From a virus (lineage: Duplodnaviria > Caudoviricetes), in the IMG/VR virus record IMGVR_UViG_3300025372_000001: 64,000 bases of DNA. One strand, 5' to 3'. Below the pieces are notes generated by a model. It was not told where the DNA came from, did not search any database, and saw only the letters and a list, made by a program, of their open reading frames with translations. Every line of letters starts with the position of its first letter. Position 1 is the stretch's first letter. The translations under genes were made by a program, and so were the position numbers. This document shows positions 26,342-56,381 of the stretch, piece after piece.

Positions 26342-27000
26342 TTTAGTCTTTCTAAGCAAATATTATAATAGTTTTCTTCTTTTTCGATACCTATGAATTG
26401 ACGATTAAGATTTTTAGCGGCAACGCAAGTTGTTCCGCTGCCCATGAATAAATCTAATACCAAATCTCCTTCATTGGAACTATTTTCTATGAGCTTCTGG
26501 ATCAATGATAGTGGTTTTTCAGTTGGGTGAACCTTACCAGATGCTAAGGTTGGCGTTTCCACGTTGAAATAATCTCTGGATGTAGGATCGTTAATTCTTT
26601 TTGCGGCACCTTTTCTAAAAAAGAGAATCTTTTCAGTATATTTTAAATACCATCTATTCGGCATTTTAGTATTTTTAATCATACTAAGAATATTATGTAA
26701 TTCAAAACCGACACTATCGGCAGCATTTAAATAGGAGCGAATATCATTGTTATTACAGAACGTGTAGAAGTGTGTTCGATTTTTTAAAACTCTAAAACAT
26801 TCACCCATCCAAAGTTTAGGATCAATAATTGCAGATGGAAACAAGCTCCCTGAATTACTTGCTGGCATATAATTTGGACGACAAGATTTGCCATTTTTTG
26901 TCATTTTAAATGGTGGGTCAGTGAGAACTAAGTCAATAGATTCATCTGAAATATTATACATTTCTTCTAAACAATCGCCAAGAATTAATTTTTGTATCAT
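26338..27000 (-). CDS. Orphan DNA methyltransferase, beta class N6A/N4C
   Basis: ILGDCLEEM, DLVLTDPPF, HPTEKP, VLDLFMGSGTTCVAA, FIGIE. Confidence 0.93.
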   Translation of the reverse strand: MIQKLILGDCLEEMYNISDESIDLVLTDPPFKMTKNGKSCRPNYMPASNSGSLFPSAIIDPKLWMGECFRVLKNRTHFYTFCNNNDIRSYLNAADSVGFELHNILSMIKNTKMPNRWYLKYTEKILFFRKGAAKRINDPTSRDYFNVETPTLASGKVHPTEKPLSLIQKLIENSSNEGDLVLDLFMGSGTTCVAAKNLNRQFIGIEKEENYYNICLERLK

Positions 27001-27038
27001 AATAATAAAAGGCACCGGTATAGAGATATACCGGTGCC
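27001..27038 (-). terminator. Rho-independent terminator
   Basis: ggcaccggtata-gaga-tataccggtgcc 12-bp stem with a T tract on the - strand. Confidence 0.8.
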
Positions 27039-27051
27039 GCCCAATCTTTCT

Positions 27052-28286: not shown

Positions 28287-28316
28287 AAAAAAAGGCGAGA
28301 ATTTCTCGCCTTTTTT
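28287..28316. terminator. Bidirectional Rho-independent terminator
   Basis: aaaaaaaggcgagaa-t-ttctcgccttttt. Confidence 0.75.
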
Positions 28317-28317
28317 C

Positions 28318-29027: not shown

Positions 29028-31584
29028 ATTGTAATTTAGGGTCGGGCATTTTCCATTTCAAGGCATCATACATAGGTTCCAAACTTTTAATAATATCATA
29101 AAAAAACATTTTTTCATAATCTGCTTCCAGTCCGAACTCTTTTGGTAATTGATCTTGATAGGCTATTCCAGGTAAATTGTATTTATTATCCTTAATATGT
29201 AACATCTTGATCTTTGAACCGTTTTCAATCTTCCTATAAACATTCTCTAAATTATTAGTCTTAATTAATTCATTGTGCCAAATACTTAACTTAGCTGCTC
29301 TTGTGGTTCCTTTGGCAGTATTCAATCCATTATTCTTGGTATCCCATTTACTAAGAACCTTGATTCCTCCTCGTTCTGCAATATCATTAACTGAAAAGGT
29401 TTTAAATTCTTCATAGGCATCAAAGATCATTTGATCTGCAATTTTTTGATCTTTTGTTCCCATGATAATTTCCACAATCTTCTTAGAAATATCTTTTGAA
29501 CGGGCAGATAAGGTTGATTTAGCGAGGCGAACACCTGAATACTTAAAAGTGTTCATTTTCTTACCTTCCTTGTTAAGGATGTACATTACATAGTGTTTCT
29601 TACCCATCCACATAGCTTTAGGGCAAACGCTTTCCCTTTTAAAGACAAATCGCGGATCAGCAGAATTCAATTTTTCGATGGCCCAAGTGTTGATTTCTTT
29701 ATTTAAATGGTCGGAAATCTTATTTTCTATTTCATTGAATCCATCAGTCAAATTCCTATTTTCATCAAAAATATCCACCCCTACTTTTTGCATAATATCC
29801 TTAAGAGAAACACCTAAGGAATCCGTGTCGGAGAATATGATTCTATCTTTCTTTTCCAATCCCCATTCAGAAACCAAATAATCGTTCACTATATTTGCAC
29901 TCTTCTTAATCATTGCTTGTCCAGAAGTAGTAATAGATGTTGCACAATCTAATTCATATAAAGCAAAATATCTATTAGCAAATGCCCCGTAAGTCGAATT
30001 TAGAAGAATCTTATAAAGATATTGTTCTACATCTTTTTGAGATGAAAGCGTTTTTAATTGATTATATTCCAATGAATCTTTATCTAAAAGTTCCATCTGT
30101 TTTTCAATTTGAAACATTTCATTTTTAACCTTCTTACGTTTTTGATAAAGAACATCACAGAAACTTGCTGCAATACCTTTAACATTTTGATCATACATGA
30201 CTCCATTAGCTGCAAGCGACCAATTCTTTTGTTTAAGAATATCATGTAATTTATCTTTAGCAATCTCAACGGTTTTATTCTTCCTAGTCAGCAGAATCGT
30301 ATGAATATCATTCTCAGTTTTAATGATCTTGGCAACCTTTGTTTCAGGAGAAATATTAAGCGTAATGATATTAGATGGATAAAGAGAATTAGCATCGAAA
30401 CTAACTACGTCTTCGTATAAACCTTCTTCGGGTTGTTTAACATAACCACCAGGAATCTTTTCTGCATCATCTGCTCCTTTTTGAGTAGAAATATATTTTC
30501 CATCTTCTAAAGATTGTTTTGCCAAAACTCCTGTAATAATTGCTGTTTTACCAAATGCTTTATCAAGGTTACAAAATCCACTGAATGCAGAAAACTTAGC
30601 AATCTCTAAGTATTTCTTTTTTGCATCCAACATAACTAATAACTTAACATCCCAAATATTATAATTGATAAATTTATCCCAATCTTCATTACAAAGTTCT
30701 TGGAGGGATTTATCACCATATTCTAATTTACCCTTTCCTAATTCAGAGAAGGTGACAAAATCAAGAGAATCACTTTCCCGTTCACCAGGAGTGAAATATT
30801 TATAAAGAACCATATAATCAATATGCGCAATTCCCCCTAGTTCATATTCGATATATTGTTGTCCAAAACGATTAGTTGTTTCCTTTCCGTAAATGCTATT
30901 AACAGGGGAAAGATTCTTACTATATCCTTCACCAAATAGGTGTTCTAATCTATTAACGATATAAGGCTGGTCAAAACTGAAGCTGTTATATCCACAAATA
31001 ATATCAGGAAAATTAGCTCTCCAAAATCTAACGAACTTCTTTAATAGAACGGTTTCATCTTGGCAATAATCATAAACAATTTCTTCTGGTTCTACATCAG
31101 TTAAATCGTCTTTACACGAATAATCATCGTATGGGTTAATTCCCCATGTGAAATATTTTTTCTTAAGCGTATCAAAAATTGTAATAGAAGTAATGGGATA
31201 TTTTGCTTCCATTGGATTAGGAAACTCATCTGCAATAACTTCAATATCGAAAAAGAATGTTCTTAAAGGATTTGCTGTTAGCTCATTAATATCTTTATTA
31301 TGATAAAGGTCTAAGAGATATTGTTGAGTAGGAGGGAGATTATAATAAATCTTGGTTTGACAAGTTTTAACAAATTTGGTTCTTTCGTAATTATTATTAA
31401 ATTCCCTTTTAAGAAGGGGAACACCATCGATACCAATACCGTCTTGTTTATCTTTGGAAGGGGAAGGAACAAGAAGATAAGGTTTATAGTTCTTGATTAT
31501 GCGTGAAGGAAGACCATCGGTAGTCCAAGTGAAATGGTGAATTTGGGATTTTTTATGATCATACCAACAATTTCTATAACTCAT
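28996..31584 (-). CDS. gp43: Family B DNA polymerase gp43
   Basis: Exo FFDIEV, GYNSFSFDQPY, YNIWDV; Pol SFDANSLYPS, KILLNSTYG, FSDTDS, KKHY. Confidence 0.97.
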   Translation of the reverse strand: MSYRNCWYDHKKSQIHHFTWTTDGLPSRIIKNYKPYLLVPSPSKDKQDGIGIDGVPLLKREFNNNYERTKFVKTCQTKIYYNLPPTQQYLLDLYHNKDINELTANPLRTFFFDIEVIADEFPNPMEAKYPITSITIFDTLKKKYFTWGINPYDDYSCKDDLTDVEPEEIVYDYCQDETVLLKKFVRFWRANFPDIICGYNSFSFDQPYIVNRLEHLFGEGYSKNLSPVNSIYGKETTNRFGQQYIEYELGGIAHIDYMVLYKYFTPGERESDSLDFVTFSELGKGKLEYGDKSLQELCNEDWDKFINYNIWDVKLLVMLDAKKKYLEIAKFSAFSGFCNLDKAFGKTAIITGVLAKQSLEDGKYISTQKGADDAEKIPGGYVKQPEEGLYEDVVSFDANSLYPSNIITLNISPETKVAKIIKTENDIHTILLTRKNKTVEIAKDKLHDILKQKNWSLAANGVMYDQNVKGIAASFCDVLYQKRKKVKNEMFQIEKQMELLDKDSLEYNQLKTLSSQKDVEQYLYKILLNSTYGAFANRYFALYELDCATSITTSGQAMIKKSANIVNDYLVSEWGLEKKDRIIFSDTDSLGVSLKDIMQKVGVDIFDENRNLTDGFNEIENKISDHLNKEINTWAIEKLNSADPRFVFKRESVCPKAMWMGKKHYVMYILNKEGKKMNTFKYSGVRLAKSTLSARSKDISKKIVEIIMGTKDQKIADQMIFDAYEEFKTFSVNDIAERGGIKVLSKWDTKNNGLNTAKGTTRAAKLSIWHNELIKTNNLENVYRKIENGSKIKMLHIKDNKYNLPGIAYQDQLPKEFGLEADYEKMFFYDIIKSLEPMYDALKWKMPDPKLQYEATLEEIFG

Positions 31585-31590
31585 TGATGA

Positions 31591-31619
31591 ACTATATCAC
31601 GGAATCAGTTTTCAAGCAA
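31591..31619 (-). promoter_or_regulatory. Sigma70-like promoter abutting the gp43 start
   Basis: TTGCTT-17-TATAGT (with TGn) then 6 nt to ATG 31584. Confidence 0.45.
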
Positions 31620-31941: not shown

Positions 31942-32814
31942 TTATTGAAATTGTTCTTTATTCAATTCAGCAAACATCGGAAATGCTTTGCGTTTTTCAC
32001 TTCCATATTCAGTAGAATAAATTGTAACCAATTCATCCAAGTGATCTTTTAGAATATATTTCTTTGCATATTCTCTGCCAAATTCGATTGCCTCTTGATA
32101 ATTGGTTTTATTTTTTAATACTTCTTCAATCATCTGCATCATTTGTTCACCAGTATCAAACAGATATTTCCATCCATCAAAATTATAACATTCTAGATTT
32201 TGTGCAATCACAGGAATACCAAATGCTCCACCTTCTGTCAATTTAATATTGGATTTGGCTCGATTGAATTCATTTTTCTCTAAAGGAGCAAGCATGATTT
32301 GACAATTTAAATTCCTAATAAAATCAGGATATTCAGGAAGAGGAATCCATGGATGAAATTCTACTCCTCTTCCAATAAATTCTCTTAGTCTATAAGGTAA
32401 TGCTCCTCCGAGGAATACCCATTCATATTTCTTCTTATTAAGAAGATCATCAATAATGTAGGAATTGATATGTGAAAAATCGTCTTTTTGACCATTTTTA
32501 TTAACTACATCGAAATGTGTTGCACTTCCTGCATATAGAATTCTTGGTTTCTTGTTCTTACTTTTCTTATAATTGAAAAGAAGTTTGTCCATGTTGAAAC
32601 CAATATCTACTAGATGCTTTGGAGCATAGTTAGGAAGAACGGTAATCTTATGGAAATCTAGTCTTTCTTCATAAAGTTTCTTCATATATGGGGATACAAC
32701 TGTTACTTCATCGCAATTTTTAACTAAAATATTATTAGCATAAAAATTATGATTTTTTTCTACGGTTAAATCATAGACAGGTCTTTTCTTCGAAAGCTTT
32801 TTTATAGTTATCAT
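31942..32814 (-). CDS. Split intein C-fragment (33 aa) fused to the C-half of a GT-B (GT4-like) glycosyltransferase
   Basis: IntC block F/G VYDLTVEKNHNFYANNILVKN|C; extein CDEVTVVSP…RILYAGSATH…IMLAPLEKNEFNRAKSNIKLTEGGAFGIPVIA. Confidence 0.9.
   Translation of the reverse strand: MITIKKLSKKRPVYDLTVEKNHNFYANNILVKNCDEVTVVSPYMKKLYEERLDFHKITVLPNYAPKHLVDIGFNMDKLLFNYKKSKNKKPRILYAGSATHFDVVNKNGQKDDFSHINSYIIDDLLNKKKYEWVFLGGALPYRLREFIGRGVEFHPWIPLPEYPDFIRNLNCQIMLAPLEKNEFNRAKSNIKLTEGGAFGIPVIAQNLECYNFDGWKYLFDTGEQMMQMIEEVLKNKTNYQEAIEFGREYAKKYILKDHLDELVTIYSTEYGSEKRKAFPMFAELNKEQFQ
32716..32814 (-). mobile_element. IntC of a naturally split intein
   Basis: Terminal Asn followed by Cys+1; block F Asp and His present. 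Confidence 0.9.
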
Positions 32815-33082: not shown

Positions 33083-33916
33083 CTAGTTTTTTTCCAGTTG
33101 TTCGGCAGTTTTCTCTTTTTTAGATGGCACCTGCTCCCATTTATTTTTATATTTGTCAGGCAAATCTTGTGGCGTAAAGGGAGTAGCATATTCCGCGTAT
33201 ATATTAAAAAGTTCTATGAAACTTCTTCCTCGCATTATATCACATACCATTTCATTGAAAAAAACAGGGATACTTCTTTTTTTGCATTCTGCTAAGAATG
33301 CTTTGTAGAATCCTCTGGTTCCTTCGCCATTAAATCTAAATTTACTTTTTTTATCATAGTTCTGAGGATAACCCATAGTTTTACAATATTTTAGCCAGGG
33401 AGTAGCGTATATATTTCGACGTATCAGAAAATATTCGATGGCTTTATCTATAATCATAACATCAGTTACACCCGTGTATCTACCATTTTTCTCTCCACTA
33501 ACTACTTCTGATCTGATTTTTCTATATTTTTCGTCTTTATAGAAATCTCGATTTCTTGCAAATGGATCGTATACTGCTCCATTTTTTAACATATTGTATC
33601 CTTTTTCACAATTAGTACTATCATATAATGCGATATATTTCTCTTCTATTTCTAATGCCTCATTATGATCGGTGGTGATAGCTAATACTTCGTATGTCAA
33701 ATTCTCTGCCCCATATTTTCGAATAGCATGTTTTAATCTTGTTAAATTTTCGATTTCGTGACTTTTCCCGACACAGTTAGCAACATATATATGCTGTTTA
33801 ATTCGATGTAAAGGTTCTCGCTTTGTATATCCGATATATACTTTATTATTTAAATTAATTTTATATATAGAATATGTGATGGGTTTCTTTTCAGTAGTAA
33901 CAATATCGTCGGACAT
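33083..33916 (-). CDS. Free-standing GIY-YIG homing endonuclease (Seg-like)
   Basis: SIYKI…VYIGYT…R…H, AIRKYG…F/L.YEVL, E..YI…GYN. Confidence 0.9.
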   Translation of the reverse strand: MSDDIVTTEKKPITYSIYKINLNNKVYIGYTKREPLHRIKQHIYVANCVGKSHEIENLTRLKHAIRKYGAENLTYEVLAITTDHNEALEIEEKYIALYDSTNCEKGYNMLKNGAVYDPFARNRDFYKDEKYRKIRSEVVSGEKNGRYTGVTDVMIIDKAIEYFLIRRNIYATPWLKYCKTMGYPQNYDKKSKFRFNGEGTRGFYKAFLAECKKRSIPVFFNEMVCDIMRGRSFIELFNIYAEYATPFTPQDLPDKYKNKWEQVPSKKEKTAEQLEKN

Positions 33917-33942
33917 TAAAACTATTTATACTACGACGATAT
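33903..33942 (-). promoter_or_regulatory. Late promoter TATAAATA and the endonuclease start codon enclosed by a 9-bp inverted repeat
   Basis: atatcgtcg (33903-33911) / cgacgatat (33934-33942); TATAAATA at 33923-33930. Confidence 0.6.
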
Positions 33943-33943
33943 A

Positions 33944-34822
33944 TTATACAATATCTAATATATCATTTGATAATAATTCTTCTGCAATAACCCATCCTCT
34001 ATTCTTAGTAAAGATTGGATGATCCGGTGTACAAATAATAGAATGTCCCGAAACACTATCAGTAATCTCTAAAACATCAGCACTATCATTCGTCATCTCG
34101 CATGCTAATAAAGATTTAAATTCTATAACATTGGTATCTAAATCTTTGGACAAAACTTTGATATTTTTGCCTTCATCAAAATATTCTTTAAGTTCTTTAA
34201 GATCAATGTCCATATAAATCCCATCAACTATGGTATTAATGATGGATGATTCATCTACGCATAAATGAACTATTTCTTTTACAATCTTTTCGATTTTATT
34301 ATCTAGGAAACCTTCGCGACAAGCATTATACATTGGCAAGGTGTCAATAAAAATACTATCGTCCACTTCCCACACGATTCTAAATCCCTTACCTGTTTGT
34401 CGCTTAAATTCATTAGAGACTTCTCGTAAAAATTTAACGAATTCTAATTGAGGTTCAGTACATTGTCTCTGAACACGAACGGCATCAATTGCTCCATAGA
34501 AATGAGGAACCATTACCATTTGATATAGGGTCATTACTACTGCTTTATTGTATGCAAGAAGGTCGTCGGCAGGCCAAATCATCCGCCAAAATCCACAACC
34601 AGATTGATCGGCACAATAATGAATGACTCTAGGAAGACCTTCACCAGGAACAGGAATTTTAAAAGGTTCAGGTTTAGGTAGAGGAGTCCAAGGTTTTTTA
34701 GAAATAGGATTATGTCCTATGTGCTTCTTAAAAGGTGTTAAAGGGTGATTATGAGAAGGAGGTTGAGTAGGAACTATACCGGGAACTTTAATATTTGTCT
34801 GGGGTGTAACGAAAGAAGCCAT
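33944..34822 (-). CDS. N-half of a GT-B glycosyltransferase (187 aa) fused to the split intein N-fragment (105 aa)
   Basis: Extein DQSGCGFWRMIWP…VQRQ…WEVDD; IntN CVDESSII…CTPDHPIFTKNRGWVIAEELLSNDIL*. Confidence 0.9.
   Translation of the reverse strand: MASFVTPQTNIKVPGIVPTQPPSHNHPLTPFKKHIGHNPISKKPWTPLPKPEPFKIPVPGEGLPRVIHYCADQSGCGFWRMIWPADDLLAYNKAVVMTLYQMVMVPHFYGAIDAVRVQRQCTEPQLEFVKFLREVSNEFKRQTGKGFRIVWEVDDSIFIDTLPMYNACREGFLDNKIEKIVKEIVHLCVDESSIINTIVDGIYMDIDLKELKEYFDEGKNIKVLSKDLDTNVIEFKSLLACEMTNDSADVLEITDSVSGHSIICTPDHPIFTKNRGWVIAEELLSNDILDIV
33947..34261 (-). mobile_element. IntN of a naturally split intein
   Basis: Cys1 at 34259-34261; block B TxxH with the RGW.AeeL..D tail, then a stop codon. 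Confidence 0.9.
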
Positions 34823-34849
34823 CTTAAACGTATTTAAGATGGCTTCTTT
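34812..34849 (-). promoter_or_regulatory. Perfect 17-bp hairpin sequestering the GT-N start codon, with a late promoter in the upstream arm and loop
   Basis: aaagaagccatcttaaa-cgta-tttaagatggcttcttt; ATG at 34822 in the stem; TAAATA at 34831-34836. Confidence 0.8.
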
Positions 34850-34870: not shown

Positions 34871-35164
34871 TTAACTATTAAAGAATTGAATTAATTGATC
34901 TTTAGTTTTACCGCCAACTTGTCGTCCTACTTCTACCCCATTTTTATAATGGATAATAGTTGGAACGGCACGAATACCTTCTTGAGAAGCTAGATTACTC
35001 GCTTCATCAGTGTCCACTTTAATGATATTAATTTCTTCTGCTGCTTTCTCGATATTGGGGGCCATCATTTTACAAGGTGTGCAAAAACTTGCACTATATA
35101 CAATAATGAGGTTTTCGTCATTTGCGCGTTTAATTATAGCATCTTTTTCTGTTGTGTATTCCAT
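34871..35164 (-). CDS. trxA: Thioredoxin
   Basis: SASFCTPCKMMAP, IKVDTDE, GIRAVPTII…G. Confidence 0.9.
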   Translation of the reverse strand: MEYTTEKDAIIKRANDENLIIVYSASFCTPCKMMAPNIEKAAEEINIIKVDTDEASNLASQEGIRAVPTIIHYKNGVEVGRQVGGKTKDQLIQFFNS

Positions 35165-35973
35165 ACGTGGTTATTTAATCTTTCGTCTTTTCGTGTTAAA
35201 GTAATATGTGGATAATCGTTTATTCCTTTTATGAGAAGTTCCTGAACTGCATCTTTATTGAAATGTAAATCCCAATATTCCTTTTTTCTTTTACTTATTT
35301 TTCCTCCAAAAAAATATTGTAAGTCTTCTATGAATCCTTTACTGGCAGACACTATACTTATACGGTGTCCTGTTTTTGCTACCCAACCATCGCCATCTGT
35401 TACTCCACGTAAAAAACCTAATCTAAAGTTTTCAGTTGCGGTGGAAAAGGTTTCTATATTTATTCGAAGATCATAAGTCTTATTTGTAAATATCAGAAAT
35501 TGGTGAATGACGTTTTCAAATGCAGGCATCGTTGCAGTATATGCAATCTTATCAGTTTTTCCTAAAGTCGGGGGTTTTATACGGAAATCGGAAATATCTA
35601 TATCTTCTAATAAAGTATCAAAAAACTTAAATAAGCAATCCTTATCTTTTATTGCTAAAGTTATATCTATCCTACTAATCGTATTTTTAATCTTAAAATT
35701 GGTGTATAGGCAACCATCTGCGGCAAAAAATCCTAAACACCATCCCAAATCAAAATCGGATATATTTATTTTAGCTTTATGTTTTATTCTGCCACCTTTT
35801 TCAAAAAATGGACTTTTGATACCACTTTTCTTTCTTAACTCTGAAAGAGTTCGAGATTTTATCTCCAATAAATCACATAACTCTTTTCTATTTTTAGAAG
35901 AGTTATAAATTTTTAATAATTCGATTCGTTTTAAATTTATCTCATATTGTTGAGCGTTAGTATATTTTCGCAT
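35134..35973 (-). CDS. Free-standing double-motif LAGLIDADG homing endonuclease with an N-terminal HTH
   Basis: LGWCLGFFAADGCL and LGFLRGVTDGDGWV. Confidence 0.88.
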   Translation of the reverse strand: MRKYTNAQQYEINLKRIELLKIYNSSKNRKELCDLLEIKSRTLSELRKKSGIKSPFFEKGGRIKHKAKINISDFDLGWCLGFFAADGCLYTNFKIKNTISRIDITLAIKDKDCLFKFFDTLLEDIDISDFRIKPPTLGKTDKIAYTATMPAFENVIHQFLIFTNKTYDLRINIETFSTATENFRLGFLRGVTDGDGWVAKTGHRISIVSASKGFIEDLQYFFGGKISKRKKEYWDLHFNKDAVQELLIKGINDYPHITLTRKDERLNNHVWNTQQKKML

Positions 35974-36488: not shown

Positions 36489-38240
36489 TTATTCTACTAT
36501 TCTCGTAAGACCCCTTTCTTTCTCTAATCTAATTACATTCCCATCCGAAATCATAATATTATTCGGATTGTGTGTGATAATATAATATGCCTCATTGTTC
36601 TGTTCACTCATTATTTTCAACAATTCCATAATTTCTTCTGCTGCTTTTGAATCAATGGACGAATCAAACAATTCATCAAACACAGAAATATTAACTGTCA
36701 CATTACTTTGTAATCTTCTAATATCTCTAAAAGTAAACAACATGGAAAAACAAACTCGTCCCTTTTCTCCATCAGATAATCTATCATAAGATATAGTCTT
36801 TCCTTTCGGATTAACCACAGTTTCTTCGAAAAATTCATCAAAGGTAATACTACAAGGCGTATTCAATCTCTTCAAATAGAAATTCAATCTCTCATTAATT
36901 GTATCCAATATCTTACTAGTAATAAATGCCTTTACTCCTGTCGGAGAAAAAGTAATCTTAACTCCTTCCAATATTGCTACTTCTTTTTTTAACTCTTGGA
37001 ACACTGTTCGTCTTGCTTCCAAATAAGTCTTATCATTTGTAACCTTTTCCAAAAACGGATTAACTGATGATTCGATTCTTGCTCGTTCCTTAATAGTTGC
37101 TAAAATTCGATCTTGCGACTTATGATAAACATCTTGCTTTTCTTGTGTCCTTTTCTTCTTTTCTTCTAATGCCTTAAATTCCTTTTCAGTTAAATTATAA
37201 CGTTGTTGAAGAGTATCATAAACATTAACCAATTGAGTAATTTTATTATTTAATTCCTTGATAACTTCTTGAATTTGTTTCTTTTCATCATCGAAGGAAT
37301 GAGTATCATTGTTATCAAAAGAACGTTTACAAGTAGGACAAAAAGTAGGTTTATCTTCTAATTTCTTTAGCTTACTTGTTTCGTTTCTTAATTCGGTTGA
37401 TACTTCTGCTTTTCTGACAGATGCTCGTTGTTTCTTTTCAGTTATATTAGTTAATGATGCTTTCTTTAATTCTAAATCTCTATCCAGTTGTCTTAATTCT
37501 TCGGTTAAGTCAATAGGATGAACTTGTTTCAATTCATTCAATAATTTATCATAATCAAGAAGTGCCTGTTCTTTGCGTTTCTCATGGCTTTCTGCATATG
37601 CTTCATCTTTCTCGATGGACTTTACTAACTCTTGTATTCGAGCCTCTTCTTTGCCCATTTCTGTGCATTTAAGAGCATGTTCATCTTTTGCATCCTTGGC
37701 AAGTTTACTAAACACTTCTAATCCTAGAATACCTTCAATAAATTTAGTTTTTAAAGATTTCTCTTGAGAAAGGAATGCAGAAGATTCTTTACTAGTCATT
37801 ACTAAAGTATTAGTGAATACTTCTTTAGTAATTCCTAGATCATTGAGAATGTCTTTAGTTGTTTCAGGTTTAGTTTTGGTTTTATCTTCTCTAGTACCAT
37901 CAGGATGAACAACGAATCTGGTTAATTCATCGGGGGAAAGAGAACGCATGATTTCATAGTTGATCCCGTTAACTGAATACCAACATTCAACGATACATGC
38001 ATCTTTGGCATGATCATTTTTGATTTCTTTTTGATTGATATTTCGATAGGTTTTACCGAATAGAACGAAAGAGAGCGGTTCAACGATTAGAGAAGTTTTT
38101 CCGACTCCGTTAAAAGAATTATCGTCTTTGTTGAAACCGGTGATGAAGTTGATGCCTTCTTGAAAGATTAATTCAGTTGGTTCATTTCCATATGAGAGGA
38201 AATTTCTAATTCGTATTTTTTCAAATATTACTTTTTTCAT
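36489..38240 (-). CDS. gp46: Recombination endonuclease ATPase subunit gp46 (Rad50/SbcC-like)
   Basis: NFLSYGN, NGVGKTS, Zn hook CPTC, LSDGEKGR, FDELFDSSID, IITHN. Confidence 0.95.
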   Translation of the reverse strand: MKKVIFEKIRIRNFLSYGNEPTELIFQEGINFITGFNKDDNSFNGVGKTSLIVEPLSFVLFGKTYRNINQKEIKNDHAKDACIVECWYSVNGINYEIMRSLSPDELTRFVVHPDGTREDKTKTKPETTKDILNDLGITKEVFTNTLVMTSKESSAFLSQEKSLKTKFIEGILGLEVFSKLAKDAKDEHALKCTEMGKEEARIQELVKSIEKDEAYAESHEKRKEQALLDYDKLLNELKQVHPIDLTEELRQLDRDLELKKASLTNITEKKQRASVRKAEVSTELRNETSKLKKLEDKPTFCPTCKRSFDNNDTHSFDDEKKQIQEVIKELNNKITQLVNVYDTLQQRYNLTEKEFKALEEKKKRTQEKQDVYHKSQDRILATIKERARIESSVNPFLEKVTNDKTYLEARRTVFQELKKEVAILEGVKITFSPTGVKAFITSKILDTINERLNFYLKRLNTPCSITFDEFFEETVVNPKGKTISYDRLSDGEKGRVCFSMLFTFRDIRRLQSNVTVNISVFDELFDSSIDSKAAEEIMELLKIMSEQNNEAYYIITHNPNNIMISDGNVIRLEKERGLTRIVE

Positions 38241-55616: not shown

Positions 55617-56381
55617 TTAATTCTCGTAAACAACCTCATCATGATCAGAATCAGAAAACACTTTGGGTCGGCGCACATTGGTATAATTTTCTGTGGATAA
55701 TGTTGCTTCCCATACTTCTTCTTGATAGGCATCAATGGTTTGTTTTGCTAAGTTTTCTTTCTTAATTCTATTAATGAATGAATTGGCACTAATTCCTGTG
55801 AAGTAATTAAATGCATCACTCTTATAGGTAATATACTCTCCATCTGCTCTCATTTCAAATACTGCTCCTTCTTGAATCTTCTTTTTACGAATCTTCTGCC
55901 GTCTATCGAAATGATAAAAATATTGAATCCCATTACTTTCATCTTTCTTAATAATCTTATCAGTAGAATATCCCTTAAACGAACAATCTCTTACTGCTTT
56001 AACCATTTTAAGAATAGCATCGCCAATCATCTCTGCTTTCCATGAATATCTTACAAAGTTAGGAAGATATGCCATTCTATCTGCAATATCATTAATCATT
56101 GTGGCAAGTTTATAAGGAAAAGCAGGATAATCTTTTGTTTTATCAACTATTTTTTGAATCTTCCAATCATAATTATCTCCTAATGCCAAATAATAGTTGC
56201 GAATTTCTTCCCACATCTCTTCTGGTTTAACATAAATGTCGGTTTCTTTCTTCTTTTCTCTTTTCTTCTTTACAATAGGAATATCATCGTCTTCAAGATA
56301 AGCAGCAACAACAGTTGCCTCAATATCTTCAATATTATCTAGTTCAATTTCATCTTCTAAGTCGAGGTTAATTTTTGCCAT
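55617..56381 (-). CDS. gp55: Late-transcription sigma factor gp55
   Basis: IYV…EMWEEI, IADRMAYLPNFVRYSWKAEMIGDAIL, AFNYFT..S.NSFINRIKKE. Confidence 0.9.
   Translation of the reverse strand: MAKINLDLEDEIELDNIEDIEATVVAAYLEDDDIPIVKKKREKKKETDIYVKPEEMWEEIRNYYLALGDNYDWKIQKIVDKTKDYPAFPYKLATMINDIADRMAYLPNFVRYSWKAEMIGDAILKMVKAVRDCSFKGYSTDKIIKKDESNGIQYFYHFDRRQKIRKKKIQEGAVFEMRADGEYITYKSDAFNYFTGISANSFINRIKKENLAKQTIDAYQEEVWEATLSTENYTNVRRPKVFSDSDHDEVVYEN

Follow-up and report, generated by a model that had tools for sequence, protein, structure and literature searches.

In a 64,000-nt stretch of DNA from an uncultured T4-like phage (hereafter the window), a perfect 17-bp hairpin covers the start codon of a split glycosyltransferase gene, and a late-promoter-like TAAATA box lies in its upstream arm and loop. 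We regard this hairpin as a probable cis-acting translational lock of the T4 e/I-TevI type on the glycosyltransferase AUG, adapted to leaderless mRNA and opened by an internal gp55-type late promoter; the probability that we assign to this reading is about 0.6. It is based on the hairpin structure and its covariation among relatives, the genome-wide TAAATA motif, a late sigma factor gene and the geometry of promoter and helix, from which we infer the start site of the late transcript, the timing of expression and the effect on translation.

The window is a part of an 82-kb IMG/VR virus record, which was judged to be 31% complete; the material comes from freshwater metagenomes, and a search for sequencing runs yielded DNA runs of freshwater and pond metagenomes only. 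The genes around the hairpin are all encoded on the minus strand. In the direction of transcription they are as follows.

36489-38240, minus strand: Rad50/SbcC-like gene, followed by two small ORFs
35134-35973, minus strand: LAGLIDADG endonuclease gene, directly upstream of the thioredoxin gene
34871..35164, minus strand: thioredoxin, 97 aa; unstructured start, with a TTAAATA box of its own 7 nt ahead of the ATG
33944..34822, minus strand: glycosyltransferase N-half with the split-intein N-part, 292 aa (Intein_splicing at residues 207-289)
33083..33916, minus strand: free-standing GIY-YIG homing endonuclease, between both gene halves
31942..32814, minus strand: split-intein C-part with the glycosyltransferase C-half, 290 aa
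28996-31584, minus strand: family B DNA polymerase, preceded by a small ORF

The split glycosyltransferase named in the original prediction is real: the N-half with the intein N-part, the GIY-YIG gene and the intein C-part with the C-half were all found. Dassa et al. 2009 (PMC2677866) call such an arrangement a “fractured gene”. The N-terminus, M-A-S-F-V, fits the M-[AP]-x-[FI]-[VI] start of 80+ homologues, and the start codon is thus well supported. Unsplit homologues match the glycosyltransferase family phrog_7162, a generic phage family. A megablast search of the locus against cultured phages gave no match, and tblastn with the N-half found intein parts only, in Yersinia and Klebsiella phages. 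The PDB, searched by sequence with an unsplit homologue, returned nothing useful, i.e., no solved relative was detectable. The gene is part of the replication module, with Rad50 on one side and DNA polymerase on the other; T4 carries a-gt in this region, and the enzyme may therefore modify DNA. Virion glycosylation, which the original prediction favored over DNA modification, is speculative.

Several observations concern the mobile elements of this locus. The glycosyltransferase is split by an intein at about residue 190 in several lineages (L171 and L180; P0003, P0004, P0030, P0041, P0043, P0047, and P0066), which differ in N-terminal sequence and in the intervening ORF (either a GIY-YIG gene, with a length of 224 or 277 aa, or an ORF of 386 aa). 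Unsplit versions are found in many close relatives. This distribution suggests repeated invasion or spread of the split element. The LAGLIDADG gene overlaps the thioredoxin start by 31 nt, and the TAAATA box of thioredoxin lies inside the 3' end of the LAGLIDADG gene, which is present in L171 and absent in L003, L172, and L174.

The RNA read from 34849 to 34812 on the minus strand is AAAGAAGCCAUCUUAAA-UACG-UUUAAGAUGGCUUCUUU, whose two arms pair perfectly over 17 bp and enclose a 4-nt loop. The parts are given below.

34833..34849, minus strand: hairpin 5' arm AAAGAAGCCAUCUUAAA, located in the non-coding gap of 48 nt behind the thioredoxin stop codon
34829..34832, minus strand: hairpin loop UACG, the first two bases of which finish the TAAATA box
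34812..34828, minus strand: hairpin 3' arm UUUAAGAUGGCUUCUUU, which spans the last 6 nt ahead of the start codon, the first three codons and two bases of the fourth

The original prediction had described a perfect 17-bp inverted repeat at 34812-34849 with the ATG (34822) in the downstream arm and TAAATA in the upstream arm and loop, and every one of these coordinates is right. RNA folding, which had been proposed as a check, spoke for the hairpin: taken alone, it has a minimum free energy of -21.7 kcal/mol (z -9.5), and none of 200 dinucleotide shuffles was equally good; in a 101-nt context the values are -25.3 kcal/mol and z -6.3. The glycosyltransferase ATG (34822..34820) sits in the 3' arm, and the pairing probability of the AUG is 1.0. 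Among the perfect short-spacer inverted repeats of the window this one is the longest, and by our own estimate from a GC content of 32.6% about 3e-4 perfect 17-mer repeats of this kind are expected per window by chance. A chance palindrome was rejected as an account of the hairpin. The start region of the gene (from -50 to +30) folds at -23.2 kcal/mol, to be compared with a mean of -8.1 (sd 4.6) over the 110 gene starts of the 82-kb record; it ranks second in stability among all 110 and is the clear first among the 29 genes preceded by TAAATA. Scanning IMG/VR for the exact pattern of the hairpin core returned just three contigs, all already known.

The box overlapping the hairpin belongs to a motif that recurs throughout the genome. 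The elements relevant to late transcription are the following.

34831..34838, minus strand: late-promoter-like box CTTAAATA, core TAAATA at 34836..34831, 8 nt before the glycosyltransferase ATG
about 34825, minus strand: predicted late transcription start, from T4 geometry with the last A of the box at -6, giving a 3-nt leader AAG before the AUG
35172-35177 (minus), 33923-33930 (minus), 17397 (plus) and 14848 (plus): other examples of TAAATA ahead of start codons in the window
55617..56381, minus strand: gp55-family late sigma factor gene (phrog_234, E 4.5e-13), the presumed reader of TAAATA

Among the 110 ORFs called in the 82-kb record, 29 have a TAAATA that ends 1-10 nt before the start; all but one of these lie at 5-10 nt (the exception is at 1 nt), with a sharp peak at 5-8 nt. 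TAAATA is the top hexamer 5-9 nt before starts, where it occurs at 27 starts, and these account for 27 of its 106 copies in the 82 kb (both strands). Baseplate hub genes are among the genes led by TAAATA. A Shine-Dalgarno-like 4-mer precedes only 1 of the 29 TAAATA-led genes, as against 11 of the 81 others, and the 8 nt between the box and the glycosyltransferase AUG (CGUUUAAG) contain no Shine-Dalgarno sequence. In the hairpin, the core straddles the boundary between the 5' arm (four bases) and the loop (two bases). The glycosyltransferase box matches the T4 octamer at 6 of 8 positions, and the bases next to its core (CT on the 5' side, CG on the 3' side) are among the less common variants of this motif in the genome.

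The late sigma factor gene was reached from T4 gp55 via homologues in complete related genomes; T4 gp55 as a direct query had no match in the 82-kb record, and the homologue of a relative was needed for detection. The match to the gp55 family is divided into two segments, suggesting that the protein has an insertion when compared with shorter homologues. The interpretation of TAAATA as the gp55-type late-gene signal of this phage is supported by the sequence evidence, and at that level the claim of a late promoter inside the hairpin held: the box recurs ahead of starts genome-wide, a gp55-family gene is present, and the placement of the box leaves the 5' arm out of the predicted transcript.

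The T4 late promoter consensus TATAAATA occupies positions -13..-6 (PMC2988020). With the same geometry, a gap of 5-8 nt between TAAATA and the start codon gives leaders of 0-3 nt, i.e., leaderless late mRNAs, and the 8-nt gap of the glycosyltransferase puts its predicted start at about 34825. An RNA beginning at 34825 would be nearly unstructured (-2.5 kcal/mol over 60 nt, z +1.75). In the literature that we searched, the coverage of which is incomplete, there was no description of a T4-type late promoter yielding leaderless mRNAs. Early or middle genes may be near-leaderless too. The DNA polymerase gene has a sigma-70-like promoter (TTGCTT, 17 nt, TATAGT) at 31591-31619 on the minus strand, which ends 6 nt before the ATG at 31584; in relatives, TTGCnn and a -10 box are kept at the same place.

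The mechanism that we propose is as follows. RNA entering from upstream, either from thioredoxin's own promoter or as longer Rad50-to-thioredoxin transcripts, would contain both arms and fold into the 17-bp helix, with the AUG buried. RNA polymerase carrying the phage late sigma factor would read the TAAATA in the 5' arm and loop and start about 6 nt further on, near 34825. The resulting late RNA would be without the 5' arm, begin 3 nt before the AUG and be essentially unstructured, which would allow its translation as a leaderless message, as for the other late mRNAs of this phage. Expression of the glycosyltransferase would then be confined to the times and places at which its own late promoter is active. 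A broader proposal, which we advance tentatively and at somewhat less than even odds, is that this is a leaderless-mRNA version of the T4 lock in freshwater T4-like jumbo phages that have no late ribosome binding sites: the choice of promoter alone would set translatability, with a 5'-terminal AUG as the sole translatable form and longer RNAs hiding the AUG.

Relatives of the locus were obtained from IMG/VR, from JGI/ENA metagenomes, and through a protein search with subsequent look-up of the contigs. A start-codon hairpin with z <= -2.5 is found in 12 of 17 sequences, or 8 of 13 sequence types (proteins 50-88% identical), while the other 5 of these 17 close relatives have no significant hairpin. 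The forms observed are listed here.

Window type: 17-bp hairpin
L003/L083/L174 type: pair 6 changed from C-G to G-C; loop UAUU, which keeps UA; stem of about 22 bp with one bulge (L003 type)
L171: 3' arm codes for Ala-Val and not Ala-Ser, with three matching double changes in the non-coding 5' arm
L180/L181: 11-bp core with pair 10 inverted
L172: unrelated 16-bp arms, with a promoter-like box in the loop
L006/L175: 13-bp stem interrupted by an internal loop, TAAATA in the loop, and arm sequences unrelated to those of the window, although the arrangement is retained here and in L172
L179 and L182: 7-8-bp stems with the AUG in the loop

Changes in homologous phages that compensate each other, another check that had been suggested in advance, were observed. 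In the alignable subset, 94% of cells pair and 6 of the 17 pairs are changed on both sides, a result that none of 500 shuffles reached; controls with slid partners gave 38-53% of cells paired. The starts of two other genes in the same loci served as controls and are unstructured: z ranges from -2.95 to +1.6 over six thioredoxin and nine DNA polymerase loci. Among 59 distinct distant homologues (35-48% identity) the mean z is 0.07, and none has z <= -2.5. The spacing of 8 nt between TAAATA and ATG is kept in 9 of 13 box-carrying sequences (range 5-10). In all hairpin types the predicted late start falls downstream of the whole 5' arm or of most of it, and so a late transcript could not form the helix. 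Judging by these patterns of sequence change, the hairpin at the glycosyltransferase start is under selection.

One consequence for annotation was noticed in the L003 type, where the palindrome makes an in-frame ATG in the 5' arm (positions 2983-3000 in L003 and 1501-1518 in L174 and L171). Gene callers thus add six residues (MLNIFN...) to proteins of the L003 type, e.g., P0001 and P0004, and this N-terminal extension is probably an annotation artefact.

The same comparison bears on the level at which the element acts. A palindrome recognized in DNA, as a site for a dimeric regulator, a cruciform, or a target for recombination or an endonuclease, is suggested by the perfection of the repeat, by its overlap with a promoter-like box and by a locus crowded with homing endonucleases (LAGLIDADG, GIY-YIG). 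However, its sequence is not conserved between lineages, and the hairpin is found equally where no endonuclease or intein is near (L003, L174, and L172). Moreover, G-U pairs occur in four outer pairs; such pairs exist in the sense-strand RNA only and indicate RNA rather than DNA. We therefore consider a DNA-level function very improbable.

Other roles at the RNA level would be a processing site, e.g., for RNase III separating two messages, or an operator for a translational repressor. The long stem (17 bp in the window and the longer, bulged form in the L003 type) would suit either, and T4 has RNA operators at the starts of genes 32 and 43 and for RegA (PMC3014915), which we counted in favor of the operator. 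But several versions of the hairpin, at 8-11 bp, are shorter than RNase III requires. Arms and loop are wholly different in sequence between lineages, with just the pairing and TAAATA kept, which argues against a sequence-specific protein. A search of Rfam also counts against both roles: no family reached threshold for the hairpin, and there were only sub-threshold matches to generic hairpins. These roles thus seem improbable, if slightly less so than action in DNA.

The neighborhood of the hairpin differs among relatives. Thioredoxin is the upstream neighbor in the window, L003, L171, L172, and L174; otherwise, this place is taken by an ORF of 66-67 aa (L083 and the contig of P0005, the closest unsplit homologue sharing the N-terminus of the window), by an R2K-domain gene (L175) or by Rad50 (L006 and L180). 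The hairpin stays with the glycosyltransferase behind these varying genes, and hence it belongs to the glycosyltransferase and not to thioredoxin. In two relatives with divergent neighbors, L178 and L179, the hairpin is weak, which hints that strong hairpins may go with co-directional upstream genes. The hairpin stands before unsplit genes of 444-457 aa in L003, L083, L174, L172, L006, and L175 (448-457 aa if L003 and L083/L174 are counted from the upstream ATG of the gene caller) as well as before split ones in the window, L171, and L180. Since it is present on unsplit homologues, the hairpin is older than the invasion by the intein and the endonuclease. The idea that it times trans-splicing was rejected for the same reason, and a tie to the split in some other way is not supported.

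Termination of the upstream unit deserves more attention. The hairpin could be mainly an intrinsic terminator or a protective 3'-end hairpin of the unit upstream, its overlap with the start codon being incidental; such a role is compatible with the lock. Opening of the three outer A-U pairs leaves a 14-bp stem followed by UUUCGUU; the corresponding tail is UUUUGUU in the L004 type, and L171 has GUUUUCGUU after a G+C-rich stem. There is no other terminator-like site on the minus strand between 41311 and 28317, and the downstream DNA polymerase would not be starved by termination here, having its own sigma-70-like promoter beside its ATG. The U-rich tail, however, is encoded by the conserved Phe/Ile-Val codons 4-5 and hence is not independent evidence. 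It is missing after the hairpins of L180/L181, L172, and L006/L175, so that the role is not general, and in the L003 type it is itself paired in the longer stem.

Our terminator scan did not call the hairpin, whose tail after the full stem is CGUUACAC, i.e., interrupted. The clear terminators of this phage, in contrast, have G+C-rich stems and U runs, as in 28317..28287 and in a second one with a GGCACCGG... stem. Two textbook examples are given below.

28287-28317, minus strand: intrinsic terminator with a G+C-rich stem and a U run, flagged by the scan
about 27000-27040, minus strand: intrinsic terminator with a GGCACCGGUAUA...UAUACCGGUGCC stem plus UUUUAUUAUU

The marks of an intrinsic terminator, namely a G+C-rich stem, a direct U run and linkage to an upstream gene, are not seen in the hairpin. 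Its stem is A+U-rich, with G-C at 5 of 17 pairs, and the element keeps to the glycosyltransferase whether thioredoxin, the ORF of 66-67 aa, the R2K-domain gene or Rad50 lies upstream. Furthermore, the AUG is always inside the element, which termination would not need. We thus consider it unlikely that the hairpin is mainly a terminator, although termination could contribute in the window, L003, and L171 types, where a U-rich stretch follows the stem. A role restricted to terminating the thioredoxin transcript, named beforehand as one of the outcomes that would speak against a lock, is unlikely as well because the hairpin follows the glycosyltransferase whatever gene lies upstream.

The translational lock would act on RNA that reads through from upstream. 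The terminator scan found no canonical terminator on the minus strand between 41311 and the hairpin, and the upstream genes are co-directional. The original prediction placed the lock on early read-through transcripts. The co-directional upstream genes would allow read-through, but the picture of a purely early origin has to be modified: thioredoxin itself is led by TAAATA, and so a part of the read-through would be late rather than early. Translation of the glycosyltransferase only late in infection is plausible. It should be added that an internal AUG without a Shine-Dalgarno sequence might be poorly used on read-through RNA anyway, so that it is not evident why a lock should be needed.

The GIY-YIG endonuclease gene has a stem of its own.

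33903..33942, minus strand: second, weaker candidate lock, a 9-bp stem AUAUCGUCG / CGACGAUAU (33942..33934 with 33911..33903), -10.8 kcal/mol, z -2.7

This stem begins right after the stop codon of the N-half, and its 22-nt loop holds both a perfect TATAAATA (33930..33923) and the endonuclease AUG (33916).

If the proposed lock is correct, classic T4 post-transcriptional control also operates in uncultured T4-like phages of a very distant branch, and on a new class of gene. Late messages of this phage are apparently leaderless, and the lock would therefore have to act on the AUG itself. Of the cis-regulatory RNA structures recognizable from nothing but metagenomic phage sequence, the hairpin is one of the better supported owing to its covariation, and it marks the glycosyltransferase as a gene that is probably under tight expression control. 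A start-codon hairpin with an internal promoter might then be a general insulator that ties one protein to one promoter, and untimely expression of the glycosyltransferase would be costly, perhaps via modified DNA or an essential component of the host or phage. For gene calling in this phage group a practical rule follows, that the start is the first ATG 5-10 nt after TAAATA; this rule corrects the six-codon N-terminal extensions in database entries.

Among known systems, intrinsic terminators share with the hairpin a stem-loop directly after a gene and, in this phage, a partly U-rich stretch next to it. Unlike terminators, the hairpin has an A+U-rich stem, its tail is interrupted, coding and missing in several hairpin-bearing relatives, and its 3' arm always holds the start codon of the next gene.

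Dassa et al. 2009 (PMC2677866) described hairpins with TATAAATA upstream of endonuclease ORFs in fractured genes. The present locus resembles theirs in that a host gene is broken by a split intein, a free-standing GIY-YIG gene lies between the halves, and the source is T4-like environmental phages; the 9-bp stem at 33942..33903 fits the hairpins that they found before the endonucleases. The 17-bp hairpin differs from them in being located at the N-terminal half of the host gene and not at the endonuclease, and in occurring on unsplit homologues also, and is thus a part of the host gene rather than of the element that invaded it.

The closest parallel is provided by T4 genes e, soc, 49, and I-TevI and by Aeh1 mobE, which have hairpins at their start regions and are translated from late-promoter RNAs that lack the 5' strand (PMC3014915). 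As in these genes, the start codon is enclosed in a stable helix, a TATAAATA-type box is placed within the 5' strand or beside it and late transcripts are thereby predicted to be without that strand, the phage encodes a late sigma factor of the gp55 type, and co-directional upstream genes can supply longer transcripts. Unlike in the T4 set, there is no Shine-Dalgarno sequence to be sequestered, just the AUG and the first codons, and the released RNA is predicted to be leaderless (with a 3-nt leader), as for about a quarter of the genes of this phage. The box also departs from the T4 octamer at two of eight positions, and the lock is a prediction from sequence. The gene, too, is of another kind: a glycosyltransferase in the replication module and not a gene for lysis, decoration, a nuclease or a homing endonuclease. 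The principle is thus known from T4, and what is new is the leaderless form of the putative lock, the type of gene that it would regulate and its covarying conservation across an uncultured freshwater T4-like clade.
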